A stretch of DNA of 64,000 nucleotides from an uncultured Thermoanaerobaculia bacterium (GCA_964558905.1 CAZLGP010000232.1:34824-98823), one strand, 5' to 3'. Counted from the first letter of the stretch, positions 1,294 to 56,922 are shown. The notes: generated from the sequence alone by a model not told the origin. Made by a program: numbers and translations.

Positions 1294-1823
1294 GCGGTGA
1301 CGTTTTCTTTCGCGGGTCATTCGCTCGCGGATGCCGCCTTTCTCGAGAAACGCCTGCTCGAGATGACGGAGTTGTCGATCGAGCAGATAGTTCGCCTGGT
1401 GGATCAGGCAGATCGCGATGTTCGCGATGACATCAGCGGATCGTGTTTCGGCGAACGTGCCGAAGACCCCGTACGACTGCCCTCGGAGATCCCGAACGTA
1501 CTGCGCTTCTCGAGAGTCTTTGCTCCACTGCCTCAGGTTGCGGACGCGCAGGTAGCCTCGTAGTCCACCCGGAGCTCTTCGAGGCTGGCGCGCGCAACGC
1601 TCGTGAGCTTGATCTCCGTCTCGGTCGATGTTCCGGAGGCCTGGCTTGCCTCCGCGATGTTCTGCTTGCCGGAGCGGGCCGCCTGGATCATCTGGTCCAC
1701 GGTGCGGTCGCGTCTCTCGAGGAAGCGAGCGCAGAAGCGGACCGTGAGGTCATACACGATCTCTGCCTTCTTATACGAGATGAGCTTCCGGTAACCGCCG
1801 TGTCTTGGGATGAAACCGCTCAT
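1285..1823 (-). pseudogene. Four-helix-bundle suffix-domain protein (23S rRNA IVS protein-like family), frameshifted
   Basis: Track ORF 1533..2042 from Met74 (ATG 1823) reads GGYRKLISYKKAEIVYDLTVRFCARFL..DQMIQAARSGKQNIAEASQASGTSTETEIKLTSVARASLEEL. The expected family C-terminus (NIAICLIHQANYLLDRQLRHLEQAFLEKGGIRERMTRERK) continues in another frame down to a stop near 1285. This implies a 1-nt indel near 1553. Confidence 0.65.
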
Positions 1824-2610: not shown

Positions 2611-3336
2611 TCATAGGCTCTGTCCCGCGTCGACCCGGAGGGTCTGGCCGGTGATGCGCCGGCCGCCGGCTCCGCACAGAAACACGACCGACGCGGCGAC
2701 GTCCTCGGGCTCGACGAGCTCGCCGAGAAGTGTTTCCGCGAGGGCTTGCTGGCGCACGGGCTCGGGATAGGTCTCGGTGAGTGGCGTGCGTACCCAGCCC
2801 GGCTCGATGACGTTGACGGTGATGCCGAGGCGACCGGTCTCGCGGCTGACGCTCTTGGCGAGGCCGAGCAGTCCGGCTTTGCTCGCGGCGTAGGCGGACG
2901 TGCCGAATTTTCCGCGGGAGCCGTTGATCGAGCCGATCAGGACGATGCGACCGCTTCCGGCCGCGCGCATCGCGGGGATCACGCTGCGCAGGAGCAGGAA
3001 CGCGCCGCGCAGGTTCACGTCGTGGACGAGGTCCCAATCGTCGACGGAGAGTTTCCAGACGACTCCGTCCCGCGAAACGCCCGCGGTGTGCACGGCGATG
3101 TCGATGCGGCCGTGCGCATCGAGCACCTGAGCTACAGCGCGCGCGACGGAGTCGGCGTCGCGAACGTCGCAGAAGACCGAGGATGGTTGACGGTTGGCGG
3201 TTGGCGGTTGGCGGGGGTCCACGACATCGAGGTTGACGACGGTCGCACCGGACGCGGTGAGTGCATCGAGGATTGCGCGGCCGATGCCGCCGCTGCCGCC
3301 GGTCACGACTGCGACGCGCCCGGCGAGATCGCTCAT
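2611..3336 (-). CDS. Short-chain dehydrogenase/reductase (FabG/BadH-like), translationally coupled to bcrD
   Basis: Track ORF 2611..3774 trimmed to MSDLAGR (ATG 3336; GGAG upstream; ATGA overlap with bcrD stop at 3333-3336). Motifs VTGGSGGIGRA, S..YAASKAG, NVIEPG. Residues 41-52 are encoded by a heptamer repeat. Confidence 0.85.
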   Translation of the reverse strand: MSDLAGRVAVVTGGSGGIGRAILDALTASGATVVNLDVVDPRQPPTANRQPSSVFCDVRDADSVARAVAQVLDAHGRIDIAVHTAGVSRDGVVWKLSVDDWDLVHDVNLRGAFLLLRSVIPAMRAAGSGRIVLIGSINGSRGKFGTSAYAASKAGLLGLAKSVSRETGRLGITVNVIEPGWVRTPLTETYPEPVRQQALAETLLGELVEPEDVAASVVFLCGAGGRRITGQTLRVDAGQSL

Positions 3337-4244
3337 GCGACGCTCCTCCGCGCCAGCACCTCGTGCCGATATGCGCCCCACAGCGCGGCGCCCAGGGCGC
3401 CGGCGTAGATCGCACGCGGATCGGTGACGATCTCCATCTGCAGCTTCTCCTCGGCCGCCTTCTCGCGCAGTGCCTTGGCCAGTCCCACGTCGGCGGAGAG
3501 CCCTCCCGTGATCGCTACCGTTCCCTCCGCGCCGATCGAGCGCAGCAGTTTGAGGTATCGCCCGGCCATCGAGAGGTGGATGCCCTTGAGGATGTCGTGC
3601 GTCTTGATGCCGCGGCTGACCATGTTGATCACGTCTGTCTCCGCGAGCACCGCGCAGATGCTGCTGACCATCTCCGGATCGGACGCGCTGCAGGACAGCG
3701 GCCCGATGTCCTCGAGGGTGATGCCGAGGTAGCGCGCAACGTTCTCGAGGAACTGTCCCGATCCCGACGCGCACTGACTGGTCATGCGGTACGCGAGGAC
3801 GCGGCTCTTGTCGTCCATCTTCAGCGCGCGTGCGTGCAGCGCACCGATGTCGAGCGCGGCGCGCGCGTCGGGCATGAGGAAGATCGCGCCGCGCGCATGC
3901 GTGGTCATCCCGTAGAAATGGCCGCGGCGAAACTCCACGAGCTCGCCCTCGCCGGTCGTTGCCAGATAGGCGACGTCGCTATTTTGAATTCCCGCGTCAG
4001 TGAGCGCGGCCTCCCACGATTCTTCGATGACCTTGCGCAGATCGCGGCGGCGGATGCGATCGGTGCGCATCGCGAGGACGTGGGTGTCATCCCGAGCGTC
4101 GAGCGAGGGACCTGGGTGGGTGGCGCGCGAGGCGCCTTCTTCGCGCCCCGCCAGCCCAGGTCCCTCGCTCATGCTCGGGATGACACGTGTGATGACAGTC
4201 TTTACGCTGCTCGAGCCGACGTCCATGCCCGCGGTGATGATCAT
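3333..4244 (-). CDS. bcrD: Benzoyl-CoA reductase subunit D-like (BcrAD_BadFG ATPase)
   Basis: Motifs MIITAGMDVGSSSVKTV, MTSQCASGSGQFLENVARYLG, AVLAETDVINMVSRG, GALGAALWGA. Last gene of bcrCBAD order. 4-nt overlaps with bcrA (4241-4244) and the SDR gene. Confidence 0.8.
   Translation of the reverse strand: MIITAGMDVGSSSVKTVITRVIPSMSEGPGLAGREEGASRATHPGPSLDARDDTHVLAMRTDRIRRRDLRKVIEESWEAALTDAGIQNSDVAYLATTGEGELVEFRRGHFYGMTTHARGAIFLMPDARAALDIGALHARALKMDDKSRVLAYRMTSQCASGSGQFLENVARYLGITLEDIGPLSCSASDPEMVSSICAVLAETDVINMVSRGIKTHDILKGIHLSMAGRYLKLLRSIGAEGTVAITGGLSADVGLAKALREKAAEEKLQMEIVTDPRAIYAGALGAALWGAYRHEVLARRSVA
4084..4185. repeat. REP-like palindromic element inserted in frame in bcrD
   Basis: 102 nt (34 codons). 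TGTCATCCCGAGC..GAGCGAGGGACCTGGG arm, ~38-nt loop, reverse-complement arm ending GCTCGGGATGACA. Encodes VIPSMSEGPGLAGREEGASRATHPGPSLDARDDT. Termini match the intergenic TGTCATCCTGAGC REPs at 18.9, 31.0 and 47.5 kb. Confidence 0.8.
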
Positions 4245-5563
4245 GCTGCCTTCCTCTCCGCCGCGCGACGCGCGAACAGCGCGGCGCCGAGGGCGCCGGT
4301 GTAGATGGAGTCCGCCGAGATATTGAGCGCGCGCTCGCCGTAGTTCTCGCGCACGAGCTCCTCGAGCGCGCCGACCGCCGCGGGGTTCTTGGCCACGCCG
4401 CCGGTGAAGGTGAACTGATCGTGGATGCCACCCGAGCGAGCGAGGAGCGACATCGCCCGCAGGATGATCGCGCGGTGCAGGCCGGCGAGGATGTCTTCGC
4501 GCTTCTGGCCGAGAGACAGCCGCTCGCGCAGTTCCGCGCCGGCGAACACGGTGCAGGTGCTGTTGATCTTGACGCGCGTGTGGCTCTCCTGCGCCAGCGG
4601 GCCGAGCTCGTGCAGGCCGAGGTTCATCTCGTCGGCGATGTATCCGAGGTAGCGGCCGCAGCCGGCGGCGCAGCGGTCGTTCATCTGGAAGCTCGTGACG
4701 ATACCCGCCGCATCGACCTGGATCGCCTTCGTGTCCTGGCCGCCGATGTCGAGCACCGTGCGCGTGCCGGGGAACATCGCGTGCGCGCCGAGTCCGTGGC
4801 AGAGGATCTCGCTGCGGATCTGTTCCTTGGGGAAGGGCAGCCGCGCGCGCCCGTAGCCTGTGCCGACGGTGCTGACTTCGACGAGCTCGGTCGCGCGAGC
4901 GCGCTCCACCGCCGCGCGCAGGCGCGCATCGCTCGACGTCTCATCGAGCGCGGCGCCGATGTGTTTCTGGAACGCGTTTTCGATCGTCAACGCCTCGACG
5001 GAGAGGATCGCCGCGTCGAAAACGCCGCAGAGCGCGTCGAAGCTGATGCCCTTCGGATCCGCCGCTGCTTCCGCGAGCAGCATGTAATCGGAGGAGGCGA
5101 GGTCGCGGAAGAAATCGCTCTTGCGCGTGGCTCCCGGCGCGAAATGCTGCCGTCCAAGCGCGGCCATGGAATCGCAGATCGTGTCGAGGATCGACCGCAG
5201 CTCCTGCGCGTGCGCGGCGTGCTTCGGACCGCCCGCGAGCATGAGCATCGCCTCGCGCAAGCGGTCCAGCTGCGCGAGGTGCTGGTGCATCTTGAAATTC
5301 CGCTCGAGGTCCGCGAGGGGATCAGTTGACAGTTGACCGTTCGCAGTTGGCAGGAGCTCCTGTCGACTGTCAACTGACAACTGCCGACTGATCATCGTGA
5401 ACCGCGTCCGGACGAACGCCTCCTCGCGCACGATCTGCGCGGCGACGTCGTAGTTGCTGCGGCTGTTCGTGATGCCGCGGCCGATCAGGTCGCCGTTGCC
5501 GTCGAGAACGACCGCCTTCGTCGTCGTGGAGCCGAGGTCGATGCCGAGGAAGACCTCCATCAC
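4241..5563 (-). CDS. bcrA: Benzoyl-CoA reductase subunit A-like (BcrAD_BadFG ATPase)
   Basis: Motifs FLGIDLGSTTTKAVVLD, VLDIGGQDTKAI, MNDRCAAGCGRYLGYIA, FTGGVAKNPA. 4-nt overlaps with bcrB and bcrD. Confidence 0.8.
   Translation of the reverse strand: MMEVFLGIDLGSTTTKAVVLDGNGDLIGRGITNSRSNYDVAAQIVREEAFVRTRFTMISRQLSVDSRQELLPTANGQLSTDPLADLERNFKMHQHLAQLDRLREAMLMLAGGPKHAAHAQELRSILDTICDSMAALGRQHFAPGATRKSDFFRDLASSDYMLLAEAAADPKGISFDALCGVFDAAILSVEALTIENAFQKHIGAALDETSSDARLRAAVERARATELVEVSTVGTGYGRARLPFPKEQIRSEILCHGLGAHAMFPGTRTVLDIGGQDTKAIQVDAAGIVTSFQMNDRCAAGCGRYLGYIADEMNLGLHELGPLAQESHTRVKINSTCTVFAGAELRERLSLGQKREDILAGLHRAIILRAMSLLARSGGIHDQFTFTGGVAKNPAAVGALEELVRENYGERALNISADSIYTGALGAALFARRAAERKAA
5321..5393. 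repeat. Inverted heptamer element inserted in frame in bcrA
   Basis: GATC-AGTTGAC-AGTTGAC-CGTTCGC-AGTTGGC-AGG / AGCTC / CCT-GTCGACT-GTCAACT-GACAACT-GCCGACT-GATC. Encodes ISRQLSVDSRQELLPTANGQLSTD. Confidence 0.8.
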
Positions 5564-6864
5564 GCGGCTGCTCCTCCATCTGAACGGACAGGCATGCTTG
5601 CCTGTCCTCGTTTCTGATCGAGCATCTGCAGGTAGCTCTCAATGCGGTTCTTGATGTTCGCGGCCGAGAAGTAGCGCGGGTCGACGAGGTCGCTCTCGAT
5701 GAACGCGCCGGGGACGCCGGTGCGCTCCTCGAGCTGGCGGAGCATCATCAGTTGCCCGACGCTGAACGAGTTGCAGCTCTTCACGCTGTTGATGAGGAAG
5801 CCGTCCGCGCGGTACTCGCGCACGTACTTCTCGAGCAGATCGACACGCGTCGGCAGGCCGAGGTTCGTGTAGCAGCCGAGGCAGTAGTCGGCGAGCGTCT
5901 CCAGCGGATGATCGGGATCGTGGCGGAAGCCGCGGTCGTACAGGCCGCCGACTTTCGTGTACGTGCTGGCGACGACGACCGCTTCCTCGTCATGGAACAT
6001 CTTCCAGAATTCCCGGAAGCTGGTCCAGTTCGGGGGACCTTCGACGACGAGGCGGTATTTCTCGTGCGCCATGGGGCCGTCCGGCGTGATCGGTCCGAGT
6101 CCGGCGTCGAGTCGCTCCTGAACTTCCGCTCGCAATGCCGCGTAGTAGTCGACCGCCTCCGGCGTCCCGCGGAACGCGCTGAAGATCGGGCCGATGTAGT
6201 AGACGCCGCCGAAATAGGCATCGATCGGCGAGGGGACGTTCTTCGCGCTCTCGAGCGTCCAGACGAGGTCATCCTCGGCGCGCGAGGAGAGTCTGAGCAT
6301 CTCCCGCAGCCGATCTTCGTCGTACGCCCGTCCACTGACCTGCTCGAGCTTCGGGATGACTTCCGTGCGCATCTGCTGGACGACGTACTCGCGCTGATGC
6401 GGCTCGATCACACCGTTGGCCTGATACGGCACGTGCAGCATCGCCACGGGAACGTCGCCATATTCCTCGCGCAGAAGCTCGAACCATTTCAGGAAGGTGA
6501 AGCATCCGGTGTACGAAAGCAGCAGCAGATCGGGCTTCGGCAGGCGCTTGCCGGTCGGGCCGATGTTGCCCTTCTTCAGCATGCCGATGTCGCATTTGAC
6601 GTATGTACAGACGTCTTCGCTGTGGCCCTGTTTCTCCGCCTCGGCGATGTACTCGCCGGAAAGCTTGCGCATGCCGGACTGCAGTGCGTTGATCTCCGGC
6701 AGCACCGGCAGCAGATCGAACGACCGAACGAGCTCGTTGAGGTTGCCGGGGACGAAGGTGTAGACGACTTTCTGTCCCTCGTCGTGCGCGGACGCGAGCC
6801 GGTCGTAGTGATCGGCGATCATCGTCTTCTGGAGGAGCATGGAGTCTTCTTTGCGAATGGTCAT
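5560..6864 (-). CDS. bcrB: Benzoyl-CoA reductase subunit B-like (2-hydroxyacyl-CoA dehydratase family)
   Basis: 434 aa. Strings CTYVKCDIGMLKKG, LLLLSYTGCFTFLKWF, INSVKSCNSFSVGQ. Sits between bcrC and bcrA with an ATGA overlap to bcrA. Confidence 0.8.
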   Translation of the reverse strand: MTIRKEDSMLLQKTMIADHYDRLASAHDEGQKVVYTFVPGNLNELVRSFDLLPVLPEINALQSGMRKLSGEYIAEAEKQGHSEDVCTYVKCDIGMLKKGNIGPTGKRLPKPDLLLLSYTGCFTFLKWFELLREEYGDVPVAMLHVPYQANGVIEPHQREYVVQQMRTEVIPKLEQVSGRAYDEDRLREMLRLSSRAEDDLVWTLESAKNVPSPIDAYFGGVYYIGPIFSAFRGTPEAVDYYAALRAEVQERLDAGLGPITPDGPMAHEKYRLVVEGPPNWTSFREFWKMFHDEEAVVVASTYTKVGGLYDRGFRHDPDHPLETLADYCLGCYTNLGLPTRVDLLEKYVREYRADGFLINSVKSCNSFSVGQLMMLRQLEERTGVPGAFIESDLVDPRYFSAANIKNRIESYLQMLDQKRGQASMPVRSDGGAAA

Positions 6865-6880: not shown

Positions 6881-6986
6881 TAGGACGAATGGGACCTATA
6901 GGACGAATAGGACGAATAGGTAGCTGCCTATTCGTCCTATGGTCCTATTCGTCCTATTCGTCCTATTCGTCCTATTCGTCCTATAG
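6881..6986. repeat. 9-mer inverted array C (hairpin) inside the bcr operon
   Basis: TAGGACGAA TGGGACCTA TAGGACGAA TAGGACGAA, centre TAGGTAGCTGCCTA, then (TTCGTCCTA)x~6. Occupies almost the entire 133-nt bcrC-bcrB spacer. Confidence 0.9.
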
Positions 6987-6997
6987 ACTGAGATTCA

Positions 6998-8173
6998 TCA
7001 CGTTGCCCACAGTCGGATCGAGTCACTGAACGTCCCGGCCTGCTCGCGGATCACCGCGAACTGCCCCGTATCCTCCGAGTACTTGAACTCCGTATGCGGG
7101 ATCCCTTCGCGATCGAGCGCGGCGACGAGCATCGGCTGATCGAGCAGAGCGGGATCGCAGAAGCTCGCCGCGCAGAAGATCACTCCCTCGGCCGTGTTGC
7201 GGCCGACGGAGTCGATCACCCAGCGCCCGCGGTCGCCCTCCGGCGCATAGCGCGACGCGCTCATCGCGCTGTGATTCAGGTACGCGTCGACGAGGCTCCC
7301 CAGAGGGTCGTCGCTCTCCGGGACGTCGTCCTGCAGCCAGCGCAGACCGATCAGAAAGTCGTCGTCGACGACATAGCACCCGGCCCGTTCCAGGGTCAGC
7401 GCGAGCCCGTGCGGCGGTTGCTCGCAGAACATCCCCACGAGCACGACGCGGCTGCGGTCCTGGTCGCGGCGCTCGGTCTCCAGCGGCGCGAGTTCGAGGT
7501 ATTCGCGCAGCATCTCCGTGTGCTCTTCGACCGGCAGCACGTTGCCCGCGCGCAGGAGCAGGTAGGCCTCGGACATTGGATGGATCCACGGCTTGCGGCT
7601 GCGCGCGCGATAGAGATCGCGGATCGCGCGGCGGTTCTCGTTGTAGACGGCGACGCTCGCGCGGAGCGCGTCGTCGGTGATGGCGTTGCCCGAGATGCGC
7701 TCGAAGTCGCGCCGCAGCGTCTCCAGCTCGCGGCGCCAGAAGAGCCCTCCCACCGCCGGATCGAAGTTCTGCGGCAGGTCGACGTAATGGATATAGGGTT
7801 GTAAAGGGCGATCGGGGAAGATCATCGACCACATGCCCGAGAGATTGCGGATGACGTCGCAGATCGCGGGAAAGAGCATGCCGTCGAGGACGTCGAGACG
7901 ATGCGAGAGCGCCAGCTCGATCGTGCTGCGCGGGATGCGGCAGATGTAGCTCTGGAAATACGCGTCGCCGCGGATGATCTCCATCCGATCGCCGCCACCG
8001 ACGACTCCGACGGGGAGCATGCCCGCGGCGTGAATGAGCTCGCGGGGTACGTAGGTCGGCATGTGCCCGATCGCCTTGCGTCCGGATGCGCCCCCTTTCC
8101 AGCGCTTCACCGCCGTCAAGTCGAGGTCGTCCGACAGCGACTTCGTGCGCGTGAGCAGTTCGTCGAGGGTCAT
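6998..8173 (-). CDS. bcrC: Benzoyl-CoA reductase subunit C-like (2-hydroxyacyl-CoA dehydratase family)
   Basis: Track ORF 6998..8647 trimmed to MTLDELL (Met159, ATG 8173, ATGA overlap with dch stop). Strings YFQSYICRIPRSTIE, FPAICDVIRNLSGMW, GVIFCAASFCDPALLD. 391 aa. Confidence 0.8.
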   Translation of the reverse strand: MTLDELLTRTKSLSDDLDLTAVKRWKGGASGRKAIGHMPTYVPRELIHAAGMLPVGVVGGGDRMEIIRGDAYFQSYICRIPRSTIELALSHRLDVLDGMLFPAICDVIRNLSGMWSMIFPDRPLQPYIHYVDLPQNFDPAVGGLFWRRELETLRRDFERISGNAITDDALRASVAVYNENRRAIRDLYRARSRKPWIHPMSEAYLLLRAGNVLPVEEHTEMLREYLELAPLETERRDQDRSRVVLVGMFCEQPPHGLALTLERAGCYVVDDDFLIGLRWLQDDVPESDDPLGSLVDAYLNHSAMSASRYAPEGDRGRWVIDSVGRNTAEGVIFCAASFCDPALLDQPMLVAALDREGIPHTEFKYSEDTGQFAVIREQAGTFSDSIRLWAT

Positions 8174-8949
8174 GCGATCGCTTCCCTCCGCGCCCAGTTC
8201 GGCGTCCGCCGCTCGAGGAACGCGCGGATGCCTTCCTCGGCGTCCGGCTCGCGCATCAGCTCGTCGAGGTAGACGCGATCGACTCTCGGCAGCTCTTCGT
8301 GCAACGCCTGCACGATGCTGCGTCTTACGATGCGCGTCGTGTGACGGAGCGCGCTCGCGGAACGCGACGCGAAGTGATCTTCGATGTATGCCGCGACGGC
8401 CATGCGCAGGCCGCCCCCGGGGGTGACTCGGGTGACGAGCCCCTGCTGCATCGCGCGCATGCCCGTCCAGCTCTCGCCGGTGAGGATCATCGCCGAGGCC
8501 GGCGCGACGCCGATGCGGATCGGCAGCAGCACCGAGGCTGCGGGCGGGAACACGCCGAGCTTGATCTCCGGCGCGCCCAGCTGGGCGTTCTCCTCGGCGA
8601 GGATGATGTCGCATGCGAGCGCGAGCTCGAAGCCGCCGCCGAGGCACTGGCCGCGCACCGCGGCGATCGTCGGAGCGGCGGCAGCGGTTACGCGGCGGAG
8701 CAGACCGCCGAGGCGGGCCAGGGCTCCCTCGATCTGATCGGGGAGGTGCTCTTCGACGCTCGCGCCGAAGCTGAAGTGCGATCCCTCGCCTTCGATGACG
8801 ATCGCCCGCAGCTCGTGCTCGCGCTCGAGAGCCTCGAAGATCGCGTCGAGCTCCGTGACCATCTGGTCGTCGAGGATGTTGGCCTTCGGCGCGGCGAGAA
8901 ACACTCGCGCGATGCGCCCGTCGGAATCGACCTGAAGTTTCGCTTTCAT
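8170..8949 (-). CDS. dch: Cyclohexa-1,5-diene-1-carbonyl-CoA hydratase-like (crotonase family)
   Basis: Motifs EGSHFSFGASVEEHLPDQ, VRGQCLGGGFELALACD, EGIRAFLERRTPNW. 259 aa. Synteny with oah/had/bcr. Confidence 0.75.
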   Translation of the reverse strand: MKAKLQVDSDGRIARVFLAAPKANILDDQMVTELDAIFEALEREHELRAIVIEGEGSHFSFGASVEEHLPDQIEGALARLGGLLRRVTAAAAPTIAAVRGQCLGGGFELALACDIILAEENAQLGAPEIKLGVFPPAASVLLPIRIGVAPASAMILTGESWTGMRAMQQGLVTRVTPGGGLRMAVAAYIEDHFASRSASALRHTTRIVRRSIVQALHEELPRVDRVYLDELMREPDAEEGIRAFLERRTPNWARREAIA

Positions 8950-8967: not shown

Positions 8968-9063
8968 CGCCGTTCAGGCGCGTCAGCACCGCCGTTCAGG
9001 CGCGTGTCAGCACCGCCGTTCAGGCGCGCCTCAGCATCGCGCCGTTCAGGTGCGTGTCAGCGT
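8968..9063. repeat. Four tandem ~24-nt repeats reiterating the 3' end and stop codon of oah
   Basis: Units CGCCGTTCAGGCGCG(TG)TCAGCAC at 8968, 8990, 9014 and 9038. The last unit contains the real oah stop (TCA on + at 9046-9048). Confidence 0.85.
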
Positions 9064-10143
9064 CGGCACCCATGGCGCGATCTCCTCGATCAGCTCGTCG
9101 CTCCACGCGGCCCCTTCGGCGAGGCGTTGGCGCAGGCGGATGAAGTCCACCTCGCGCCGCTCCTTCGTGCCGTAGTGGAATGCGCGGAAGCCCGCCTTCG
9201 CCTCCGTGGTCATGTTCAGCGACAGCCACGCGCGGTTCGTCTCGCGGTTGCGGTCCCAGTGCTCGAGCTTGTGTTTGCGCATGCTCTCGATCGTCTTCGT
9301 GAGGCAGTCGGGCATGGTGTAAAGGAGCTTCGTCGCGAGGTCGTCGACCGCGGCGTCGAGCAATGTGAGATCGACGTTCCCCCGACTCATGAGCGCCTTC
9401 GCGGCGTCACGCTCCGCGCCGCTCTTCATCTCGCCGATCACCACGCGGCCGAAGTCATCGAGATAGCGATCGGTGACGACCAGCGGGTTGGCGATCCACT
9501 GTCCGTCGACGCGCAGCGCGGGAACGATCTGCGTCAGACCGCCCAGCGAGTAGAAGCGATGCGCGCTCCAGCTCTGGCAGAGCGTCGCGCTGATCATCGC
9601 CCGCTCCATACCGACGAAGAGCGGGAGGAAATCCGTGCTCCCGCCGTCGGGCGCGGAGCCATGCTTCGGCCCGGCCTGACTGAAGAGCGCGAGGTCGCTC
9701 GCGACCGAGTAGTCGCAGGCCATGCCGATCTCCTGACCGCCGCCCACGCGCATGCCGTTCACGCGGCAGATCACCGGCTTGTCGCAATGGAGGATCGCCG
9801 TGACGGCGTCGTTGAAGAGGCGCATGTACTGCCGGTACTCGCCGGGATGCCCGGCGTACACCTCCGCGTACTCGCGCGTGTTGCCGCCGGTGCAGAACGC
9901 CGTCGTGCCCGCGCCGGTGAGGATGACCGCCACCGCCGCGCGATCGTTGCTCGCAGCGCGCAGGGAGAGGATCAGCTCCTTGAGCATCGTCGTCGTATAG
10001 CTGTTCAGCTCCTTCGGGTTGTTGAGAGTGATCCAGACGTTGTGCAGCCCGTCGACGGGAACGCCGCGCTGATCGAGCACCGCGCGTTTCGACACGACGA
10101 GCTCCTTCGCCGCAAATCCCTCGACGAGGTCGTGGTCCTTCAT
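9046..10143 (-). CDS. oah: 6-oxocyclohex-1-ene-1-carbonyl-CoA hydrolase-like (ring-opening Oah/BamA type)
   Basis: Long crotonase-family protein (365 aa). Motifs AFCTGGNTREYAEVYAGHPGEYRQYMRLFND, VNGMRVGGGQEIGMACD. ATGA overlap with had. Confidence 0.8.
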   Translation of the reverse strand: MKDHDLVEGFAAKELVVSKRAVLDQRGVPVDGLHNVWITLNNPKELNSYTTTMLKELILSLRAASNDRAAVAVILTGAGTTAFCTGGNTREYAEVYAGHPGEYRQYMRLFNDAVTAILHCDKPVICRVNGMRVGGGQEIGMACDYSVASDLALFSQAGPKHGSAPDGGSTDFLPLFVGMERAMISATLCQSWSAHRFYSLGGLTQIVPALRVDGQWIANPLVVTDRYLDDFGRVVIGEMKSGAERDAAKALMSRGNVDLTLLDAAVDDLATKLLYTMPDCLTKTIESMRKHKLEHWDRNRETNRAWLSLNMTTEAKAGFRAFHYGTKERREVDFIRLRQRLAEGAAWSDELIEEIAPWVPTLTRT

Positions 10144-11231
10144 GCGGTGATCTCCTCCACTTCTGCTTTCTGCCTTCTGCCTTCAGCCTTCGGTGGAGCC
10201 GCAATCACGCGCCTCCGCAGCTCGTGTCTGTGCGCAGCCTCGAACAGCTCCGGCAGCTCCGCGAACGGCCGCACGTCCACGAAGGGTTCGAGCTTCACCT
10301 TTCCCTCGAGCACGAGCGCGAGCGCCTTCGGGTACTTCGCCGGCGCGCAGCCCCAGTTGCCGCGCGCGGTCGCATCGAGCGCCATCAGGTTCGACAGCCG
10401 GATCTCGACCTTGTCCGTGGTGTAGCCGACGACGGCGAGATAGCTGCCGAAGTCGAGCAGGTTGAAGGCAGTCTGCTGCCCCGCGGTCGTGCCGCTCATC
10501 TCGAAGATCTTCGTGCCGACGCGTCCGTGGCCGCCTTCGCGGACGATGCCGCGGATCGTGTCCTTGATCGCCTTTGGCGAAGCGGTCTTCGGGTTGATGG
10601 CCGACGATGCGCCGTGGGCGAGGGCGAGCGCGAGCCGGTCGTCGTCGACGTCGATGGCGACCACGGTCGCGCCGCACGCGGCCGCGATCTGCGCGCCGAA
10701 CCCGCCGATGCCACCCACGCCGACGATCACCACGAGATCGTCCGAGCCGACCTCGGCGCGCACGATCGCCTCGTACGGCGTCGTCACCGCGTCGGCGACG
10801 ACGGAGAGCATCTCCAGAGTGAGTCCGTCCGGCAGCACATCGGGAACGACGCACAGTCCCCGCGCGGGCACGACGACGTGCGTCGCGAATCCGCCGTGGC
10901 CGTCGTTGCCGGGCATGAACTGCTTGCGGCAGATCGTCGGGCGATGGTTGTGACACGCCTCGCACCTGCCGCACGGAATCACCGCGGGGACGATGACGCT
11001 CTGGCCGCTGCCGACGATGCGCCCGGAAATCTCATGACCGAGGATCAGCGGGAGGGGGTGGCGGGTGGGGACGCCGTCGTATGCGAAGCCGACGTCGGTG
11101 TGACAGAGACCGCAACCGGCGATCTCGACGACGACTTCGTCCGGGCCGGGCTCCAACGGCGGTAACTCGCGCTCGGCGAAAACGGCCGGCGCCTCGAGGA
11201 AAAGCCCGCGTGCGCCTTGGATCGGGGGCAT
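10140..11231 (-). CDS. had: 6-hydroxycyclohex-1-ene-1-carbonyl-CoA dehydrogenase-like (Zn-dependent MDR alcohol dehydrogenase)
   Basis: Trimmed to Met24 (ATG 11231). Motifs GCGLCHTDV, GHEISGRI, CGRCEACHNHRPTIC, VGVGGIGGFGAQ. 363 aa. First gene of the cluster. Confidence 0.8.
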   Translation of the reverse strand: MPPIQGARGLFLEAPAVFAERELPPLEPGPDEVVVEIAGCGLCHTDVGFAYDGVPTRHPLPLILGHEISGRIVGSGQSVIVPAVIPCGRCEACHNHRPTICRKQFMPGNDGHGGFATHVVVPARGLCVVPDVLPDGLTLEMLSVVADAVTTPYEAIVRAEVGSDDLVVIVGVGGIGGFGAQIAAACGATVVAIDVDDDRLALALAHGASSAINPKTASPKAIKDTIRGIVREGGHGRVGTKIFEMSGTTAGQQTAFNLLDFGSYLAVVGYTTDKVEIRLSNLMALDATARGNWGCAPAKYPKALALVLEGKVKLEPFVDVRPFAELPELFEAAHRHELRRRVIAAPPKAEGRRQKAEVEEITA

Positions 11232-11438
11232 GCAACCTCCTTTGGCAGGTTGCAACCGATCGTAGACAGACGGCGCACGTGAGCCGGTGATGAAGCGCAC
11301 CCGTCGCGGTGATCCGGAGCGCGCAGGCGCCGCCGGCCGCGCGGAGATGAACTGTCATCCCGACCCGACACGGCCGGCTGCGTGGATTGACCAAGCCTCG
11401 GCCACCTGTTCATTGCCGCACTCCCTATACTCTTCCCG

Positions 11439-18834: not shown

Positions 18835-18948
18835 CTAGGAGTCTGCGCAGCAGAAGAGGTGTCATCCTGAGCTGCGCAGACAGCGAAGGACCTTCCAGTA
18901 CGCAACGGAGAAGGTCCTTCGCCGTCTACGCGGCTCAGGATGACACGC
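18835..18948. repeat. REP/MITE-like palindrome (TGTCATCCTGAGC family)
   Basis: CTAGGAGTCTGCGCAGCAGAAGAG-GTGTCATCCTGAGCTGCGCAGACAGCGAAGGACCTTC ... GAAGGTCCTTCGCCGTCTACGCGGCTCAGGATGACAC. Confidence 0.85.
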
Positions 18949-23604: not shown

Positions 23605-24082
23605 CACGCGCGCGCACGAGATTTGTCCGCGGCTCATCGTCGCTCCTTTCTTCCGACGGCGCTCGAGAAATGCTTCCTAGCTCCACTCGGGTGATGTGCT
23701 GACGATCGAGCGCGATCTGAGTCTCCCCTCCCACGAAAGCGATTGCCGGCCAGTCGAGCTCCACCGGTCCGTCGTAGTACAGCGGTTCGAGGCGCGCTTC
23801 TACCTCCGCGAGGGCGACAATCGGCTGCTCGAACGGCTGGTGTGAGCGTGCCCGAAAAGACCCCAATCCCCGTTCGACAGAGGCAATGGCCTCTTCCTTC
23901 TCCATCGTGTCGCCGCCGACCATGTGCTCCTTCAGATACGCGACGATGGACTGGCACGCTCGGGCAGGACCGAGGCCCCACGCATCGGCGACAGCGGCAT
24001 GATTGGCCCGAACGATGCGATCGAAGACGGGCACGTTCGCAGTCCCTTTCTGGCTCTCAGTCGTCGATTGGCTCGACACCAA
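23531..24082 (-). CDS. Hypothetical protein downstream of arr (boundaries doubtful)
   Basis: 183-aa ORF with no recognisable motif. Its 5' end overlaps the arr stop by 26 nt and its 3' end overlaps the TonB-C pseudogene. The C-terminal third looks non-protein-like (RPPRTAHRQARHPTYRA). Confidence 0.3.
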   Translation of the reverse strand: MVSSQSTTESQKGTANVPVFDRIVRANHAAVADAWGLGPARACQSIVAYLKEHMVGGDTMEKEEAIASVERGLGSFRARSHQPFEQPIVALAEVEARLEPLYYDGPVELDWPAIAFVGGETQIALDRQHITRVELGSISRAPSEERSDDEPRTNLVRARAMESRTSRPPRTAHRQARHPTYRA

Positions 24083-24779
24083 GTCGGACGAGTCGCTCGA
24101 GGCCGTCCTTCATGGCTTTGAGCATCTCAGGCGAGTGTCCCTGCCAATCCGTGAGCTCGCCCGTGACCCGCAGCGGTTCTCGGGAGCGGTACGACTTCGT
24201 CGGATTCCCGCGGAACTTCTTGTCCGTCAGATTGGGGTCATCTTCGATCGGGCCGGTCGGTTCCACGGTGTAGATCCTGGCGGGACCTTCGCCGGCGGCC
24301 AACTCCGCTCCCCACGTGGCTGCATCCAGGGTGCGGGTCAGGTAGACGTAGGTCGTCGTCCTGTCCTGATTCCCGAAGTTCGGGGCATGGCCCGGCTTGA
24401 TCAGGTCTCCCGGCGCGAGGTCCGCCCGAGTGCCATGGTAGAAACGCCACTCCGTGACCTCGCCCGTGACCCGCAGCGGCTGCCGCGAGCGATAGGACAT
24501 CGTCGGATTCCGCGGAGAGTTGTCGTCCGTCAGGTCGGGGTCTCGTTCAATCGCGCCGGTCGGCGCCACGATGTAGACCCTGCCTGGGCCTTCGCCGACC
24601 GCCAGCTCTGCCGCCCAGATGGCCGCATCCGGATTAGGGGTCAGGTAGACGTAGGTCGTCAGCGAGTCCCGCTCAGCGCCGTCAGGGCGAGGGCCGGGCT
24701 CGATCAGCTCTCCCGGCTTCAGGTCGGCCCGTGTGCCATGGTAGAGCCGCTGTGACTTCAGGTCGTCTGTGGCCGCCAT
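24057..24779 (-). CDS. arr: Rifampin ADP-ribosyltransferase (Arr) family protein with tandemly duplicated catalytic domain
   Basis: Two consecutive Arr cores. Copy 1: YHGTRADLKPGELIEPG..TYVYLTPNPDAAIWAAELAVGEGPGRVYIVAPTGAIERDPDLTD..PRNPTMSYRSRQPLRVTGEVTEW. Copy 2: YHGTRADLAPGDLIKPG..TYVYLTRTLDAATWGAELAAGEGPARIYTVEPTGPIEDDPNLTDKKFRGNPTKSYRSREPLRVTGELTDWQGHSPE... Confidence 0.85.
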   Translation of the reverse strand: MAATDDLKSQRLYHGTRADLKPGELIEPGPRPDGAERDSLTTYVYLTPNPDAAIWAAELAVGEGPGRVYIVAPTGAIERDPDLTDDNSPRNPTMSYRSRQPLRVTGEVTEWRFYHGTRADLAPGDLIKPGHAPNFGNQDRTTTYVYLTRTLDAATWGAELAAGEGPARIYTVEPTGPIEDDPNLTDKKFRGNPTKSYRSREPLRVTGELTDWQGHSPEMLKAMKDGLERLVRLGVEPIDD

Positions 24780-29577: not shown

Positions 29578-29800
29578 GCGGTTGGCGATTGGCGGTTGGC
29601 GGTTGGCGGAGATGAGGATGAGCGCCGCATCTGACCTGCTCGGCCGACCGGCTCCGCCACCCGCCAACCGCCAACCGGAGTCAGTGATGTACCAGGAGCC
29701 ACCTGCCGGCAGCGCGGATGTCTGGAAAACCGGAGAGGGATGCGCGCCGTACCTGACCTGCTCCGCCAACCGCCAACCGCCAACCGCCAACCGCCAACCG
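29578..29800. repeat. Heptamer inverted array H5 with tandemly duplicated right arm
   Basis: Left arm GCGGTTGGCGATTGGCGGTTGGCGGTTGGCGG at 29578-29609. Right arm CCGCCACCCGCCAACCGCCAACCGG at 29654-29678. Second right arm (CGCCAAC)x5 at 29763-29800. Confidence 0.85.
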
Positions 29801-29808
29801 GAGAATCG

Positions 29809-30996
29809 ATGTCAGTGATGTACCAGGAGCCACCTACCGCCAGCGCGGATGTTTATGCAAACCGGATCGGACGCACGCTCAACAGCGGGTTCGTCTCCCT
29901 GATGATCAGCATCGGTCACCGGACCCGTCTCTTCGACGTGATGGCGTCGCTGCCGCCGTCGACGAGCAACGCCGTCGCCGACGCGGCCGGCCTCACGGAG
30001 CGCTACGTGCGCGAGTGGCTGGCGGCGATGACGACGGCGCGCATCGTCCACTACGACGTCCGCACGGGGACGTACTTTCTGCCGATCGAATACGCGGCGG
30101 TGCTGGGCCGCGGAGCGGGCTCGGGCAATCTCGCGCCGGCCGCGCAGCTGCTGTCGATGCTGGCCGGCATCGAGGATAAGGTCGTGGCCGGATTCCACGG
30201 AGGCGGCGGCGTGATGCCGGAGGCATACGACCGGCTGCATGCGTTCCTCGCGGAAGAGAAGCATCTGCACATCGACGAGGAGTATGTGGAAGAGCTGCTC
30301 GAGCTGATGCCGGGGATGGACCTGCGTCTCGCCGCCGGCGCGTGCGTGCTGGACGCCGGGTGCGGCGACGGCGCGGTGCTGATGGTCCTGGCGCGGATGT
30401 TCCCCCGCTCCGCATTCCGCGGCTATGACATCTCACAGGCGGCGATCGACCGCGCGAACGAGCGCGTCGACGAGGCGGGCCTGCAGAACATCGATTTTGC
30501 CGTCGGCGACATGGCCTCGCTCGACGAGCCGCGCGCGTACGATCTGGTGCTGGCTCTGGAATCGATTCACGAACAGGCGTTCCCTCGTCTCGTCCTGAGC
30601 AACATCGCGAACGCACTCAAGCGCGACGGCGTGTTCCTGATGCAGGAGGTCGCCGCATCGAGCCATCTCGCGCGCAACGTGGAGAACCCGTTCGCGCCGA
30701 TGCTCTACGCGCTCTCGCTCCTCCACGCCGTCCCGGTCTCCCTCGCCCAGGACGGCGAAGCCCTCGGCCGCATGTGGGGCGAGGAGCGCGCCCGCCAGAT
30801 GCTGCAGGAGGCGGGATTCACGAAGACGCGGTTCGACGGGATCGCCGCGGATCCGCTGCGGTATTACTGCGTGGCCACGCGTCAATCTTCGTCTTCGTCA
30901 ATCCTGAGCGAGCGCAGCGAGTCGAAGGATCAGGTGAGCCCTCTCGCTGGACGTGCATCGGAGCGCTTTGCGAGAGGGCAGTCGCCAAAATCCTGA
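29809..30996 (+). CDS. Class I SAM-dependent methyltransferase with N-terminal winged-helix-like dimerisation region
   Basis: Start MSVMYQE (Met24 of track ORF). Motif I VLDAGCGDGAVLM, DLVLALESIHE. The last ~30 aa (ILSERSESKDQVSPLAGRASERFARGQSPKS) are encoded by REP units. Confidence 0.8.
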   Translation: MSVMYQEPPTASADVYANRIGRTLNSGFVSLMISIGHRTRLFDVMASLPPSTSNAVADAAGLTERYVREWLAAMTTARIVHYDVRTGTYFLPIEYAAVLGRGAGSGNLAPAAQLLSMLAGIEDKVVAGFHGGGGVMPEAYDRLHAFLAEEKHLHIDEEYVEELLELMPGMDLRLAAGACVLDAGCGDGAVLMVLARMFPRSAFRGYDISQAAIDRANERVDEAGLQNIDFAVGDMASLDEPRAYDLVLALESIHEQAFPRLVLSNIANALKRDGVFLMQEVAASSHLARNVENPFAPMLYALSLLHAVPVSLAQDGEALGRMWGEERARQMLQEAGFTKTRFDGIAADPLRYYCVATRQSSSSSILSERSESKDQVSPLAGRASERFARGQSPKS

Positions 30997-31194
30997 GTGA
31001 GCGAAGCGAGTCGAAGGATCAAGCGAGCCCTCACGGTTGGCGTGCATCGGAGCGCGCTGCGTGAGGGCAGTCGCCAAAATCCTGTGTGAGCGAAGCGAGT
31101 CGAAGGATCAACGGAGCCCTCACGCTGGACGTGCATCGGAGCGCTTTGCGAGAGGGCTCCCTTGATCCTTCGCCGCTGTGCGGCTCAGGATTTG
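30898..31194. repeat. Three tandem ~89-bp REP units plus a closing inverted half-unit
   Basis: Unit (A)ATCCTGAGCGAGCGCAGCGAGTCGAAGGATCA..GAGCCCTC..GCATCGGAGCGC..GAGGGCAGTCGCCAA at 30898, 30987 and 31076. Terminal CTTGATCCTTCGCC..GCTCAGGATTT is the inverted copy. Confidence 0.85.
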
Positions 31195-31893
31195 TGGGGG
31201 GGGGCCGGCGAGCTTCCGCACCATCGCCAGCAGCAGCGACGCCTCGCGCGTCGTCAGGACCGCGCGGCCGGTGATGGCTTGGAGCTCCGCGCACATGCGG
31301 TCGGGGCTCTTCTCGCCCCAGTAGCCGATGTCGTCGAGAAGGGCCCGGGCGTGAGTGTTGAGCCGGTGAAGGAGCTGGTGCGGCGCGGGATCGGGGTCCT
31401 TCGCGCGGGGGCGGAGTCCCTTGCCGAGCTCGTAGCAGAAGATCGCCACCGACTGGGCGAGGTTCATCGTCGGGAACTCCAGCCAGGTCGGGATGGACGC
31501 GGTGCGCTGGCAGAGCAGGACCTCGCGTCCGCTGAGGCCGTACTTCTCGCGACCGAAGACGAGCGCGAGGCGATGCTCGTCGCCGAGCTGCTCCTCGGCG
31601 ACCCGCGCGACGTCGGCGGGGGTGAGCTGTTCGTAGACCTGACGTGCGCGGACCGCGGTCGTGGCGACGGTGAGGTGGCAATCGGCGAGCGCTTCCTCCA
31701 GCGTGTCGACGCGCGTGGCCGTGTTCACGACGTCGATCGCGCCGACCGCCCACCAGCTCGACACGTTGTCGGTCCGCTCCGTTTTTCCGCCGACGATCCA
31801 GAGGTCGGTGAAGCCGAAGTTCTTCATCGCCCGCGCGGCGGCGCCGACGTTTCCGGACTCCAGCGGCTCGACGAGAACGATCCGGACCTTCAC
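31120..31893 (-). CDS. SpoU/TrmH-family RNA 2'-O-methyltransferase (TrmJ-like)
   Basis: Probable GTG start at 31893 (VKVRIVLVEPLESGNVGAAARAMKNFGF). The track start at 31950 is a GTG inside a heptamer repeat. String MNLAQSVAIFCYEL. The C-terminal ~25 aa are encoded by REP sequence. Confidence 0.8.
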   Translation of the reverse strand: MKVRIVLVEPLESGNVGAAARAMKNFGFTDLWIVGGKTERTDNVSSWWAVGAIDVVNTATRVDTLEEALADCHLTVATTAVRARQVYEQLTPADVARVAEEQLGDEHRLALVFGREKYGLSGREVLLCQRTASIPTWLEFPTMNLAQSVAIFCYELGKGLRPRAKDPDPAPHQLLHRLNTHARALLDDIGYWGEKSPDRMCAELQAITGRAVLTTREASLLLAMVRKLAGPPPQILSRTAAKDQGSPLAKRSDARPA

Positions 31894-31941
31894 GGCGGGA
31901 AGGCTATCATCGGGCCCTGCTCGAGGTAGGACCCCCGGCCG

Positions 31942-31969
31942 ACCCAGCACCCAGCACCCAGCACTCAGC
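31942..31969. repeat. Short heptamer tandem repeat (ACCCAGC)x3 + ACTCAGC
   Basis: Read directly. Lies between the trmJ-like start and the stop of the next minus-strand gene. Confidence 0.8.
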
Positions 31970-33758: not shown

Positions 33759-34490
33759 ATGACCTGGATCGATGTGGCCACCTGGGCCACCCTCGGGATG
33801 TTGCCCCTGTTTCTCATCCTCGACGCCTTCTATCGCGCGCGGAAATACGACACGCCGCGTTTCTGGCGCGTGCGCGCGCTGGCGGTGGCGATCGTCGCGT
33901 TCGCTCTCTCGTTCGCGGTGCCGATGGTGTGGGCGCGCCTGCTCGGCGGGTGGACTCTGTTCGACCTCTCATTCCTCGGCATCGCCGGCGGCGCGGTCGT
34001 GGGCATCCTCATCTACGAGCTCGGGCACTACTGGTACCACCGCACCGTGCATCGCAACGATCAGCTCTGGCTGGCGTTCCACCAGATGCATCACAGCCCG
34101 GAGAGCCTCGACGCCTGGGGCGCGTACTACCTCGCGCCGACGGACGTGATCGGCTTCGTCACGCTGCAGACGCTCATCTTTGGACCGCTCCTCGGTCTGC
34201 CGGTGGGCGCCGTGGTGATCGGAAGCCTGTTCCTGACCTTCAACGCCGTGTTCCAGCATGCGAACCTGCGGACGCCGCGCTGGCTGGGCTACATCATTCA
34301 ACGGCCGGAGAGCCACGGTATCCACCACGAGCGCGGCGTGCACGCGTACAACTACAGCGACCTTCCGCTGTGGGACATGATCTTCGGCACGTACCGCAAC
34401 CCGGAGAGGTTCGAGGGGAAGGTGGGATTCTGGGATGGCGCGTCGTCGAAGGTGGGAGCGATGTTGCTGGCGAGGGATGTGAGCCGATAG
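33759..34490 (+). CDS. Sterol desaturase / fatty-acid hydroxylase family membrane protein
   Basis: Start MTWIDVATW (Met35). His boxes HYWYHRTVH, HQMHHSPE, HGIHHERG. Stop TAG 34488-34490 is the first unit of a 9-mer array. Confidence 0.8.
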   Translation: MTWIDVATWATLGMLPLFLILDAFYRARKYDTPRFWRVRALAVAIVAFALSFAVPMVWARLLGGWTLFDLSFLGIAGGAVVGILIYELGHYWYHRTVHRNDQLWLAFHQMHHSPESLDAWGAYYLAPTDVIGFVTLQTLIFGPLLGLPVGAVVIGSLFLTFNAVFQHANLRTPRWLGYIIQRPESHGIHHERGVHAYNYSDLPLWDMIFGTYRNPERFEGKVGFWDGASSKVGAMLLARDVSR

Positions 34491-34639
34491 GACGAATGGG
34501 ACGAATGGGACGAATGGGACGAATAGGACGAATGGGACGAATGGGACGAATGGGGAGTCTACCTATCCGTCCTATGGGTCCCATAGGTCCTATGAGTCCC
34601 ATGAGTCCCATGAGTCCCATGGGTCCTATGAGTCCTATC
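34488..34639. repeat. 9-mer inverted array D (hairpin)
   Basis: Seven forward units (TAGGACGAA/TGGGACGAA), centre TGGGGAGTCTACCTA near 34555, then about eight reverse units (TCCGTCCTA, TGGGTCCCA, TGAGTCCCA...). Confidence 0.9.
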
Positions 34640-47482: not shown

Positions 47483-47594
47483 TGTCATCCTGAGCCGCGG
47501 AGACGGCGAAGGATCTTCTCTGTTGCATGCTGGAAGGTCCTTCGCTGTCTACGCAGCTCAGGATGACACCTCTTTCTACCGCGCAGACTCCTAG
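47483..47594. repeat. REP/MITE-like palindrome (TGTCATCCTGAGC family)
   Basis: GTGTCATCCTGAGCCGCGGAGACGGCGAAGGATCTTC...GAAGGTCCTTCGCTGTCTACGCAGCTCAGGATGACAC plus flank TCTTTCTACCGCGCAGACTCCTAG. Confidence 0.85.
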
Positions 47595-53502: not shown

Positions 53503-53615
53503 TAGGACGGATAGGACGAATGAGACGGATAGGACGAATGGGTAGCCCGGCTACCTATCAGTCCTATCAGTCCTATCAGTCCTATCCGTCCTATCCGTCC
53601 CATCCGTCCCATTCG
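53503..53615. repeat. 9-mer inverted array E (hairpin) in a divergent promoter region
   Basis: TAGGACGGA TAGGACGAA TGAGACGGA TAGGACGAA, centre TGGGTAGCCCGGCTACCTA, then (TCAGTCCTA)x3, TCCGTCCTA x2, TCCGTCCCA x2. Confidence 0.9.
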
Positions 53616-56768: not shown

Positions 56769-56922
56769 TAGGACGGATGGACCGATGGGACGAATGGGAC
56801 CCATGGGACCCATGGGACGAATGGGTAGACCGTTCCACCCATTCGAATAGGATCTATGAGACGAATGGGGAGACCGTTCCACCCATTCGTCCCATGGGTC
56901 CCATGCGTCCCATAGGTCCCAT
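56769..56922. repeat. 9-mer inverted array F with duplicated hairpin centre
   Basis: Six forward units, then GAATGGGTAGACCGTTCCACCCATTCG and GAATGGGGAGACCGTTCCACCCATTCG (two copies of the centre), then four reverse units. Lies between two convergent stops. Confidence 0.9.

Follow-up and report, generated by a model that had tools for sequence, protein, structure and literature searches.

The DNA studied here (the window) is a 64,000-nucleotide stretch from an uncultured Thermoanaerobaculia bacterium (GCA_964558905.1 CAZLGP010000232.1:34824-98823) with a G+C content of 66%. NCBIfam and Pfam searches identified a benzoyl-CoA degradation operon on the minus strand at its left end. Three of its genes, all on the minus strand, carry repeat elements inside their reading frames. 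These are the gene of an SDR-family oxidoreductase (2611-3336, 241 aa; Pfam adh_short_C2, 1e-53), bcrD, encoding subunit D of benzoyl-CoA reductase (BCR) (3333-4244, 303 aa; TIGR02261, 350 bits, above cutoff), and bcrA, encoding subunit A (4241-5563, 439/440 aa; TIGR02259, 564 bits). An initial annotation had placed one element in each gene, and all three were recovered at their positions, with the expected peptides, in frame and in intact genes.

The genes were delimited by family searches and by inspection of the open reading frames (ORFs) at each locus; a GC3-based gene finder missed bcrD and the SDR gene. The nearest relatives at the protein and DNA levels are all metagenome-assembled Thermoanaerobaculia (Acidobacteriota). 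We aligned the window at the DNA level with the syntenic operons of seven related assemblies (L001-L003 and L005-L008), which are Thermoanaerobaculia genome bins with 81-94% nucleotide identity per gene. In alignments with homologues, every invariant motif of BcrA, BcrD, and the SDR is intact, including the catalytic and cluster motifs. The dN/dS values of the operon genes, calculated against L002 and L008, are 0.03-0.19 (against L002, 0.07 for bcrA and 0.14 for the SDR gene). Hence, the host genes are functional, and decay or pseudogenization of the operon was ruled out. The segments are lineage-specific insertions, as had been proposed: syntenic relatives have empty sites, seen both in their DNA and in protein alignments, and the net gain is 96 nt in bcrD, 48 nt in bcrA, and 33 nt in the SDR gene.

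The bcrD element is a REP/MITE-like palindrome, here called type A (4084-4185, minus strand), which encodes VIPSMSEGPGLAGREEGASRATHPGPSLDARDD(T) and was recognized by its termini, its fold, and the empty sites of relatives. From GTCATCC to GGATGAC it measures 99 nt (4086-4184), and its terminus GTCATCCCGAGC occurs at 4086-4097 (+) and 4173-4184 (-). The RNA is predicted to form a hairpin of about 45 bp with a few mismatches (-87.7 kcal/mol, z = -11.6). In L001, L006, and L007, the protein (271-277 aa) has a two-residue hairpin turn at this site, e.g., VKTCIVRDNTVVAMRTDR, and no element. The window protein reads VKTVITR-[VIPS...ARDD]-THVLAMRTDR. The element had been described as 102 nt or 34 codons; it is present, but the net gain over the empty alleles is 32 codons. 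It had also been said to have the same termini as intergenic REPs. These termini are indeed shared with the intergenic copies at 18861-18944 (GTCATCCTGAGC...GCGAAGGACC..., -69.6 kcal/mol, z = -11.8) and 47484-47567 (assigned by its termini), but its interior differs from theirs. Thus, it forms a separate subfamily, and we refer to the intergenic copies as type B. In the window, type A is represented by the bcrD copy alone.

The same hairpin turn is occupied differently in relatives. Type B sits in bcrD of L002, L003, L005, and L008, where it lies upstream of the type-A site by about four codons. Within one BcrD cluster at 90% identity, proteins of 271, 302, 303, 305, and 316 aa occur; some of these alleles lack any element, and others have type A, type B, or a type B into which a 33-nt insert is nested. 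Another BcrD (P0004) has a different REP-like insert with VIPSAVEGS twice, a further one (P0006) has a heptamer-like insert, judged from the peptide only, and in additional relatives loops of intermediate length resemble remnants. An assembly from a JGI sample (L128) carries a 99-nt type A at the very site used in the window. Relative to the window, one nucleotide is deleted and another inserted in compensation, so that its left arm is in a different frame and reads VIPSVARDLGG... instead of VIPSMSEGPGL..., and the hairpin is intact (-91 vs. -88 kcal/mol in the window). In bcrD of an ENA sample (L129), a 54-nt non-palindromic remnant is left in frame. The right arms are also read in different frames, giving ARDD in type A and RLRMT in type B. 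The encoded peptide is not conserved.

In the AlphaFold2 (AF2) model of BcrD, the insert (residues 21-54, approximately) has a pLDDT of about 43 and no secondary structure. It lies between the strands at residues 13-21 and 54-63, i.e., in the turn between strands 2 and 3 past the phosphate-1 loop, and not right after the phosphate-binding strand, where it had been placed. The model matches 9gai_C (MbdP), the delta subunit of 3-methylbenzoyl-CoA reductase, over the whole target with a TM score of 0.79. Among 120 homologues, this loop typically measures 12 or 17 residues with a maximum of 46, and the window protein is at the long end.

The bcrA element is a 74-nt inverted heptamer palindrome (5320-5393, minus strand) encoding (M)ISRQLSVDSRQELLPTANGQLSTD(P), assigned by its arms, its fold, and the empty sites of relatives. 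Its 39-nt arms are 79% complementary, and the predicted fold has -36.3 kcal/mol (z = -4.6). The palindrome is as annotated, but it consists of about 5+5 degenerate heptamers rather than 4+4, and it displaced about 30 nt (about 10 codons) of a variable native linker, giving a net change of +48 nt (+16 codons). The element is common to the window, L002, and L003 (439 aa) and is absent from L001, L006, L007, and L008 (423-426 aa). The same insert recurs in NCBI, ENA, and Logan assemblies that are independent of one another. Since the TIGRFAM profile equals the protein in length, we considered that the segment might not be an insertion. This was rejected because the closest relatives lack 16 residues at precisely this point and because the segment is encoded by a heptamer palindrome. 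In the comparison with L002, dN/dS of the insert is about 0.5, a value based on only 24 codons, compared with 0.07 for the whole gene.

In the AF2 model of BcrA, residues 67-79 have a pLDDT below 50 and form a loop between the long helices at residues 38-65 and 82-110, within a BcrA-specific helical region. Taken together, the modelled inserts of BcrD and BcrA have pLDDT values of about 41-43 and no secondary structure. The alignment to MbdQ and HgdC skips residues 55-230 (approximately), including the insert. In the 120 homologues compared, loop lengths of 13-22 are typical, and the window protein is again at the long end. Two BcrA homologues have other repeat-like segments: P0224 contains a threefold tandem RDVGPTLSRTVPAGEPAL, a further repeat-like in-frame insert, and P0237 a heptamer-like segment, 'PPTADG...EPTADGG'.

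The SDR gene contains a single heptamer arm (3178-3218, minus strand; TRF, repeat family D1), which is (CCAACCG)n on the mRNA strand and encodes PRQPPTANRQPS(S). Its core, GGTTGGC x4.3 at 3185-3214, is 92% identical to an intergenic array at 2508-2543. The fold test gave no local RNA structure for this arm (z = +0.6). All syntenic relatives lack it: at this site, L001-L003 (230 aa) read LDV(M/K)(E/D)ADxxCD (LDVMEADVFCD in L002 and L003), and the proteins of L006 and L007 have 229 and 226 aa. The proteins of L005 (246 aa) and L008 (234 aa) have other indels in the same loop, which in L008 is a 12-nt duplication, and the link is thus a hot spot for several kinds of indel among orthologues. The heptamers are present as annotated, but the helix said to occupy this position normally is not: the alignment with the FabG-type SDR 4m8s has a helix after strand 2, whereas the orthologues of this SDR have only a 4-residue link. 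The insert lies three residues past the Asp that ends strand 2, a position that in SDRs adjoins the adenosine-ribose pocket. Loop lengths of 7-13 are typical among 120 homologues, with the window at the long end. In one homologue (P0284), the same loop is a 49-residue link with the motif 'SAAATLPLS...SSAAALES'. Overall, the mapping on AlphaFold models suggested in the initial annotation places the segments in low-confidence loops between regular secondary-structure elements, and these loops vary in length among orthologues.

The family of the SDR arm also forms an intergenic inverted element, (GGTTGGC)5 - spacer - (GCCAACC)3, at 2501-2607 (TRF and fold; -67.3 kcal/mol, z = -7.1). It lies between the SDR stop codon and the start of the downstream GNAT acetyltransferase gene (2009-2485; NCBIfam/Pfam). 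L002 and L003 are 99% identical over the operon, and a 116-nt intergenic heptamer element is present in L003 (6010-6138) and absent in L002 (6368-6380). The first codons of the adjacent acetyltransferase differ as well, which suggests recent recombination or mobility.

Two further genes of the operon have in-frame repeats. The C-terminal tail of bcrB contains a 33-nt in-frame insert (5578-5610, minus strand) just upstream of the bcrA start, which includes the 22-nt mini-hairpin GGACAGGCAnnnnTGCCTGTCC at 5586-5607 (-19.9 kcal/mol, z = -3.7) and is absent in L001, L002, and L003. The mini-hairpin occurs in two tandem copies in the bcrB tail of L007 (2662-2705), and L051 (1498-1612) has four tandem copies. 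Two distantly related genomes, those of the window and of L007, thus carry it in frame at the end of bcrB; it is also found at L042 6172-6193 and in tandem arrays elsewhere. At the had/oah junction, CTTCTGC heptamers x4.6 (10160-10191, minus strand; TRF) encode the last residues of had (PKAEGRRQKAEV...). The NCBIfam had profile stops at residue 369 of 386, and from their sequence these heptamers are probably repeat-derived.

All families involved are multicopy. The window has 11 matches to GTCATCCYGAGC with one mismatch allowed, compared with 1.4 expected, and its REP-like palindromes have GTCATCC(C/T)GAGC termini. Period-7 arrays occur at about 11 loci (TRF hits at 2501, 3185, 5323, 16471, 29578, 29763, 38829, 42295, 57784, and 58107) and six loci have inverted 9-mer arrays. 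Within the operon, hairpin repeats stand at almost all gene junctions.

Beyond the window, an exact-pattern scan of one genome per species found type A at 119 loci at least. All matches listed belong to genome bins of Thermoanaerobaculia or other Acidobacteriota, with many copies per genome, and L007, with its empty bcrD site, is among these genomes. The 67 full copies among the matches listed have a modal length of 100 nt (range 85-196 nt). Division of their lengths by three leaves a remainder of 0 in 10 copies, 1 in 29, and 2 in 28; the genic bcrD copy has 99 nt. The mean number of stop-free frames per copy is below three out of six (about 2-3 open). About three of the 67 copies look intragenic, for instance, one in an RND-like transporter gene in L086 and one at the leuB-leuC junction in L048. 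In the latter (589-683), a type-A palindrome stands between leuB-like and leuC-like coding regions, and since one frame runs through the element without a stop, the two ORFs appear fused. The flanks of the 67 copies have no conserved target beyond a palindrome-extending T...A, and no duplications.

The heptamer array (CCGCCAA)3 was found at 120 or more metagenome loci. Some of these arrays are in frame within linkers; examples are the link between two UvrA-like halves, a DnaX-like linker (L174), and a permease (L163). Since the heptamer unit has no stop codon in any of the six frames, every insertion with a length divisible by three keeps the ORF open. In L139 (4925-4951, approximately) and L172 (9221-9247, approximately), a complete inverted heptamer element (GGWRLAV...PTANRQP) links two UvrA-like halves in an ORF of about 5.6 kb, a possible case of repeat-mediated gene fusion. 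Elements of all families are mostly intergenic.

We consider it probable (about three in four) that the three segments, together with at least one and probably two more in the operon, are independent recent insertions of multicopy hairpin-forming repeats. Three families would be involved: a REP/MITE-like palindrome of about 100 nt with TGTCATCC(C/T)GAGC termini, heptamer arrays with the unit CCAACCG and its variants, present as one arm or as an inverted pair, and the 22-nt mini-hairpin. These chiefly intergenic elements would sometimes hit, or partly replace, a loop, linker, or tail that is able to take extra residues. For a genic copy to be kept, its net length change would have to be a multiple of three and its frame free of stops. 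The encoded peptides would then be by-products, i.e., disordered surface loops with little or no sequence constraint, and later decay by in-frame deletions would leave loops of odd length. The inserts appear to be tolerated as floppy loops, predicted to lie on the surface. That they are translated is suggested indirectly by the intact frame and by purifying selection on the downstream codons. The view of the initial annotation that repeats of intergenic type enter coding DNA and are retained there only where their length and frame can be accommodated is thereby borne out by the presence/absence patterns, the multicopy families, the lengths modulo three, the disordered and length-variable loops, and the purifying selection on the hosts.

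We can only infer how the elements insert, as they have neither the size and tags of the RAYT class nor target-site duplications. The sequences that flank the copies in the window, and those around the inspected type-A copies, showed no consistent duplication. CACG flanks the bcrD copy on both sides; since this is not reproduced at other copies, it was treated as chance and not as a target-site duplication. Among about 28 window ORFs scanned, there is no transposase or RAYT gene, and Rfam gave no match to any element. Short similarities at the junctions suggest mobilization in trans or template switching/recombination, not a cut-and-paste process.

Several points weigh against this reading. 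With no transposase or RAYT in the scanned ORFs, mobility is deduced from copy number and polymorphism only. The type-A hairpin is near-perfect in both the window and L128 despite the changed peptide frame, which could reflect selection on DNA or RNA structure instead of neutrality. Three internal insertions fall within 2.3 kb, and elsewhere in the 64-kb window the arrays stand between genes or at their ends. The same loops have repeatedly received elements of unrelated families, which fits tolerance and targeted insertion equally. The SDR insert is known from this contig only. Surface exposure is a prediction from the AF2 models; a literature search gave nothing usable on the 9gai class I BCR structure or on benzoyl-CoA metabolism in Thermoanaerobaculia.

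The hairpins inside the ORFs may instead be cis elements selected for their structure. By ribosome pausing, exonuclease block, or transcript segmentation, they would tune translation, mRNA decay, or the subunit stoichiometry of an oxygen-sensitive, ATP-costly reductase and thus set BCR subunit output, with the peptide being incidental. We regard this as unlikely. The folds are very stable (-87.7, -36.3, and -19.9 kcal/mol for bcrD, bcrA, and the bcrB tail). Hairpins lie in the first 250 nt (approximately) of both bcrA and bcrD, near the end of bcrB, and at the majority of gene junctions. The type-A palindrome stays near-perfect in the window and L128 although both arms have changed and the peptide frame is shifted, and heptamer STRR hairpins within cyanobacterial operons have been suggested to affect transcripts (PMC2670836). 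However, close relatives have the same operon without elements or with different ones, all that is left in L129 is a decayed remnant that is not palindromic, the arm in the SDR gene is single and has no local fold, and Rfam has no match. An intact palindrome would also be expected of young copies or of independent insertions of different family members.

Targeted insertion, in which the elements home to certain sequence or structure contexts such as GTCATC codons native to bcrD, which resemble the REP terminus, is likewise improbable. At least four kinds of insert share the BcrD turn (type A, type B, the VIPSAVEGS insert of P0004, and the heptamer-like insert of P0006). Where an allele bears an insert, GTC ATC stands before the GTCATCC end of the element or coincides with it, the right end CGGGATGAC-ACC resembles native CGCGACAAC-ACC, and one mini-hairpin family has reached the bcrB tail in two distantly related genomes. 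On the other hand, the 67 type-A flanks lack a conserved target beyond T...A and lack duplications, and the empty alleles of L006, L007, and L001 have no GTCATC at the site. Moreover, the same loops gather indels that are not repeats, such as the 12-nt duplication in the SDR gene of L008, which is what simple tolerance predicts.

It is very unlikely that the peptides were exapted as functional surface loops, e.g., as segments that serve the BcrAD ATPase module or the SDR in interaction or regulation. The bcrA insert has stayed in frame in the window and in L002/L003 across a bcrA nucleotide divergence of about 6%, and the SDR insert lies three residues past the Asp at the end of strand 2. However, the peptides are not conserved, as seen in the frame shift between the window and L128 and in the dN/dS of about 0.5 for the bcrA insert, the segments are predicted to be disordered, and most orthologues under equally strong purifying selection lack them. 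Exapted loops and regulatory mRNA hairpins had been offered as alternatives in the initial annotation; neither is needed, and the differing reading frames, the L129 remnant, and the foldless SDR arm speak against them.

Assembly or binning artefacts, i.e., repeat-induced chimeric joins in a metagenome-assembled contig, are hardly credible: contigs often stop at repeat arrays (of 126 heptamer arrays, 41 have a contig edge within 200 nt), and the SDR insert is known from this contig only, but a sequencing read or read pair is longer than any of the inserts, collinear gene sequence flanks them on both sides, the bcrA insert recurs in independent NCBI, ENA, and Logan assemblies, type A occupies the same bcrD site in the JGI sample with a remnant in the ENA sample, and every insert keeps the frame, unlike artefacts.

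Insertion of multicopy repeats, the reading that we prefer, can be compared with known systems. The STRR1-3 units of heterocystous cyanobacteria are CCCCAGT, TTGGTCA, and CAACAGT, and the heptamer units of the window match none of them. The units here are CCAACCG, CAACTG(C/T), and CTGGCAA, and the phylum is Acidobacteriota. As in cyanobacterial STRR, tandem 7-bp units often form hairpins via inverted arrays and stand between operon genes (PMC2670836; see also Vioque 1997 on cyanobacterial STRR, as cited in PMC2858038). In contrast to STRR, for which PMC2670836 documents no in-frame protein-coding case, the arrays here lie in what their sequences indicate to be enzyme reading frames.

According to PMC10969869, which summarizes Ogata et al. 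(2000, 2002), the palindromic elements long known from Rickettsia (RPEs) are in-frame insertions in genes. They resemble the elements here as multicopy palindromes of about 100-150 bp that stand in frame in unrelated metabolic genes; several families coexist, and copies decay. RPEs add their peptide where fold and function allow it, and for the present inserts such a position is predicted from the AF2 models. The present host differs in being a free-living, high-GC member of the Acidobacteriota (Thermoanaerobaculia), and the sequences are unrelated. The elements here are mostly intergenic and mostly of lengths not divisible by three, whereas a large share of RPE copies is described there as genic, and orthologous copies here have no conserved peptide, whereas each RPE family encodes one in that account.

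RAYT-associated REPs are palindromes of 20-40 bp with a GTAG or CGTC tag at one end (PMC3733652). Their genomes contain a cognate RAYT gene for an IS200/IS605-like Y1 transposase, which REPs often flank. Like REPs and REPINs, the elements here are abundant imperfect palindromes, mainly extragenic, without target-site duplications, and with very stable hairpins. Unlike them, they measure 85-196 nt with a mode of 100, end in TGTCATCC...GGATGACA, and occur singly rather than as REPIN doublets, and the window ORFs scanned include no RAYT gene. By size and tags, their sequences thus place them outside the RAYT-associated class. Intragenic MITEs (ERIC, BOX, Correia, Nezha) are likewise non-autonomous repeats that sometimes extend host ORFs or fuse with them in frame (PMC10969869). 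IS-derived MITEs have terminal inverted repeats and target-site duplications, whereas here the whole element is palindromic.

These observations extend in-frame insertion of palindromic repeats from obligate intracellular Rickettsia to free-living, high-GC, uncultured Acidobacteriota and add heptamer arrays as a second repeat architecture. Close relatives display the life cycle at single loops, from the empty site via insertion of either family and nested insertion to in-frame decay. This offers a concrete source for unexplained loop-length variation in protein alignments. More broadly, the birth and decay of hairpin repeats could be read as a major source of such variation in Acidobacteriota proteomes, and even of gene fusions (UvrA-UvrA linker, leuB-leuC junction). 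In practice, the inserts lower profile scores, with BcrA here just below its TIGRFAM cutoff, yield spurious low-complexity loops in structure predictions, and break metagenome assemblies. Positions in the BcrA/BcrD ATPase module and in the SDR that take 11-45 extra residues are useful for tagging and engineering.

The remaining genes of the operon, all on the minus strand and assigned by NCBIfam/Pfam, are bcrB (5560-6864), bcrC (about 6998-8173), dch (8170-8949), oah (9046-10143), and had (10140-11300). The gap between bcrC and bcrB is occupied by an intergenic inverted 9-mer array (TAGGACGAA / CCTATTCGT) at 6881-6984 (-65 kcal/mol, z = -10.4), which is absent in L002/L003. A 24-nt tandem repeat x3.9 (CGCCGTTCAGGCGCGTGTCAGCAC) at 8968-9061 fills the oah-dch gap. 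At about 7797-7808, bcrC has a 12-nt in-frame insert (RPLQPYIHY vs. R----YVHY in L002/L003) that is not obviously repeat-derived.

Inverted 9-mer arrays of the TAGGACGAA / ATGGGACCC types make up a third repeat class, seen in the region of 1252-1291, 1533-1823 (minus strand), and 1878-1993, and also at 6881-6984, 34490-34635, 53503-53609, and 56771-56922. One pair of these arrays brackets an ORF for a truncated four-helix bundle (PF05635, the family of 23S rRNA intervening-sequence proteins), which suggests that arrays and gene form a composite element. An 89-nt tandem repeat x2.9 ('ILSERSESKD'-type) at 30900-31157 lies between the convergent genes at 29740-30996 (+) and 31120-31950 (-) and provides the C-terminal tails and stop codons of both. 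Finally, in a rifampin ADP-ribosyltransferase gene (Arr-ms) at 24057-24779 (minus strand), the Pfam domain is matched in two stretches. These coincide with a 303-nt tandem duplication (24143-24745, 78% identity), and hence the Arr domain is internally duplicated.

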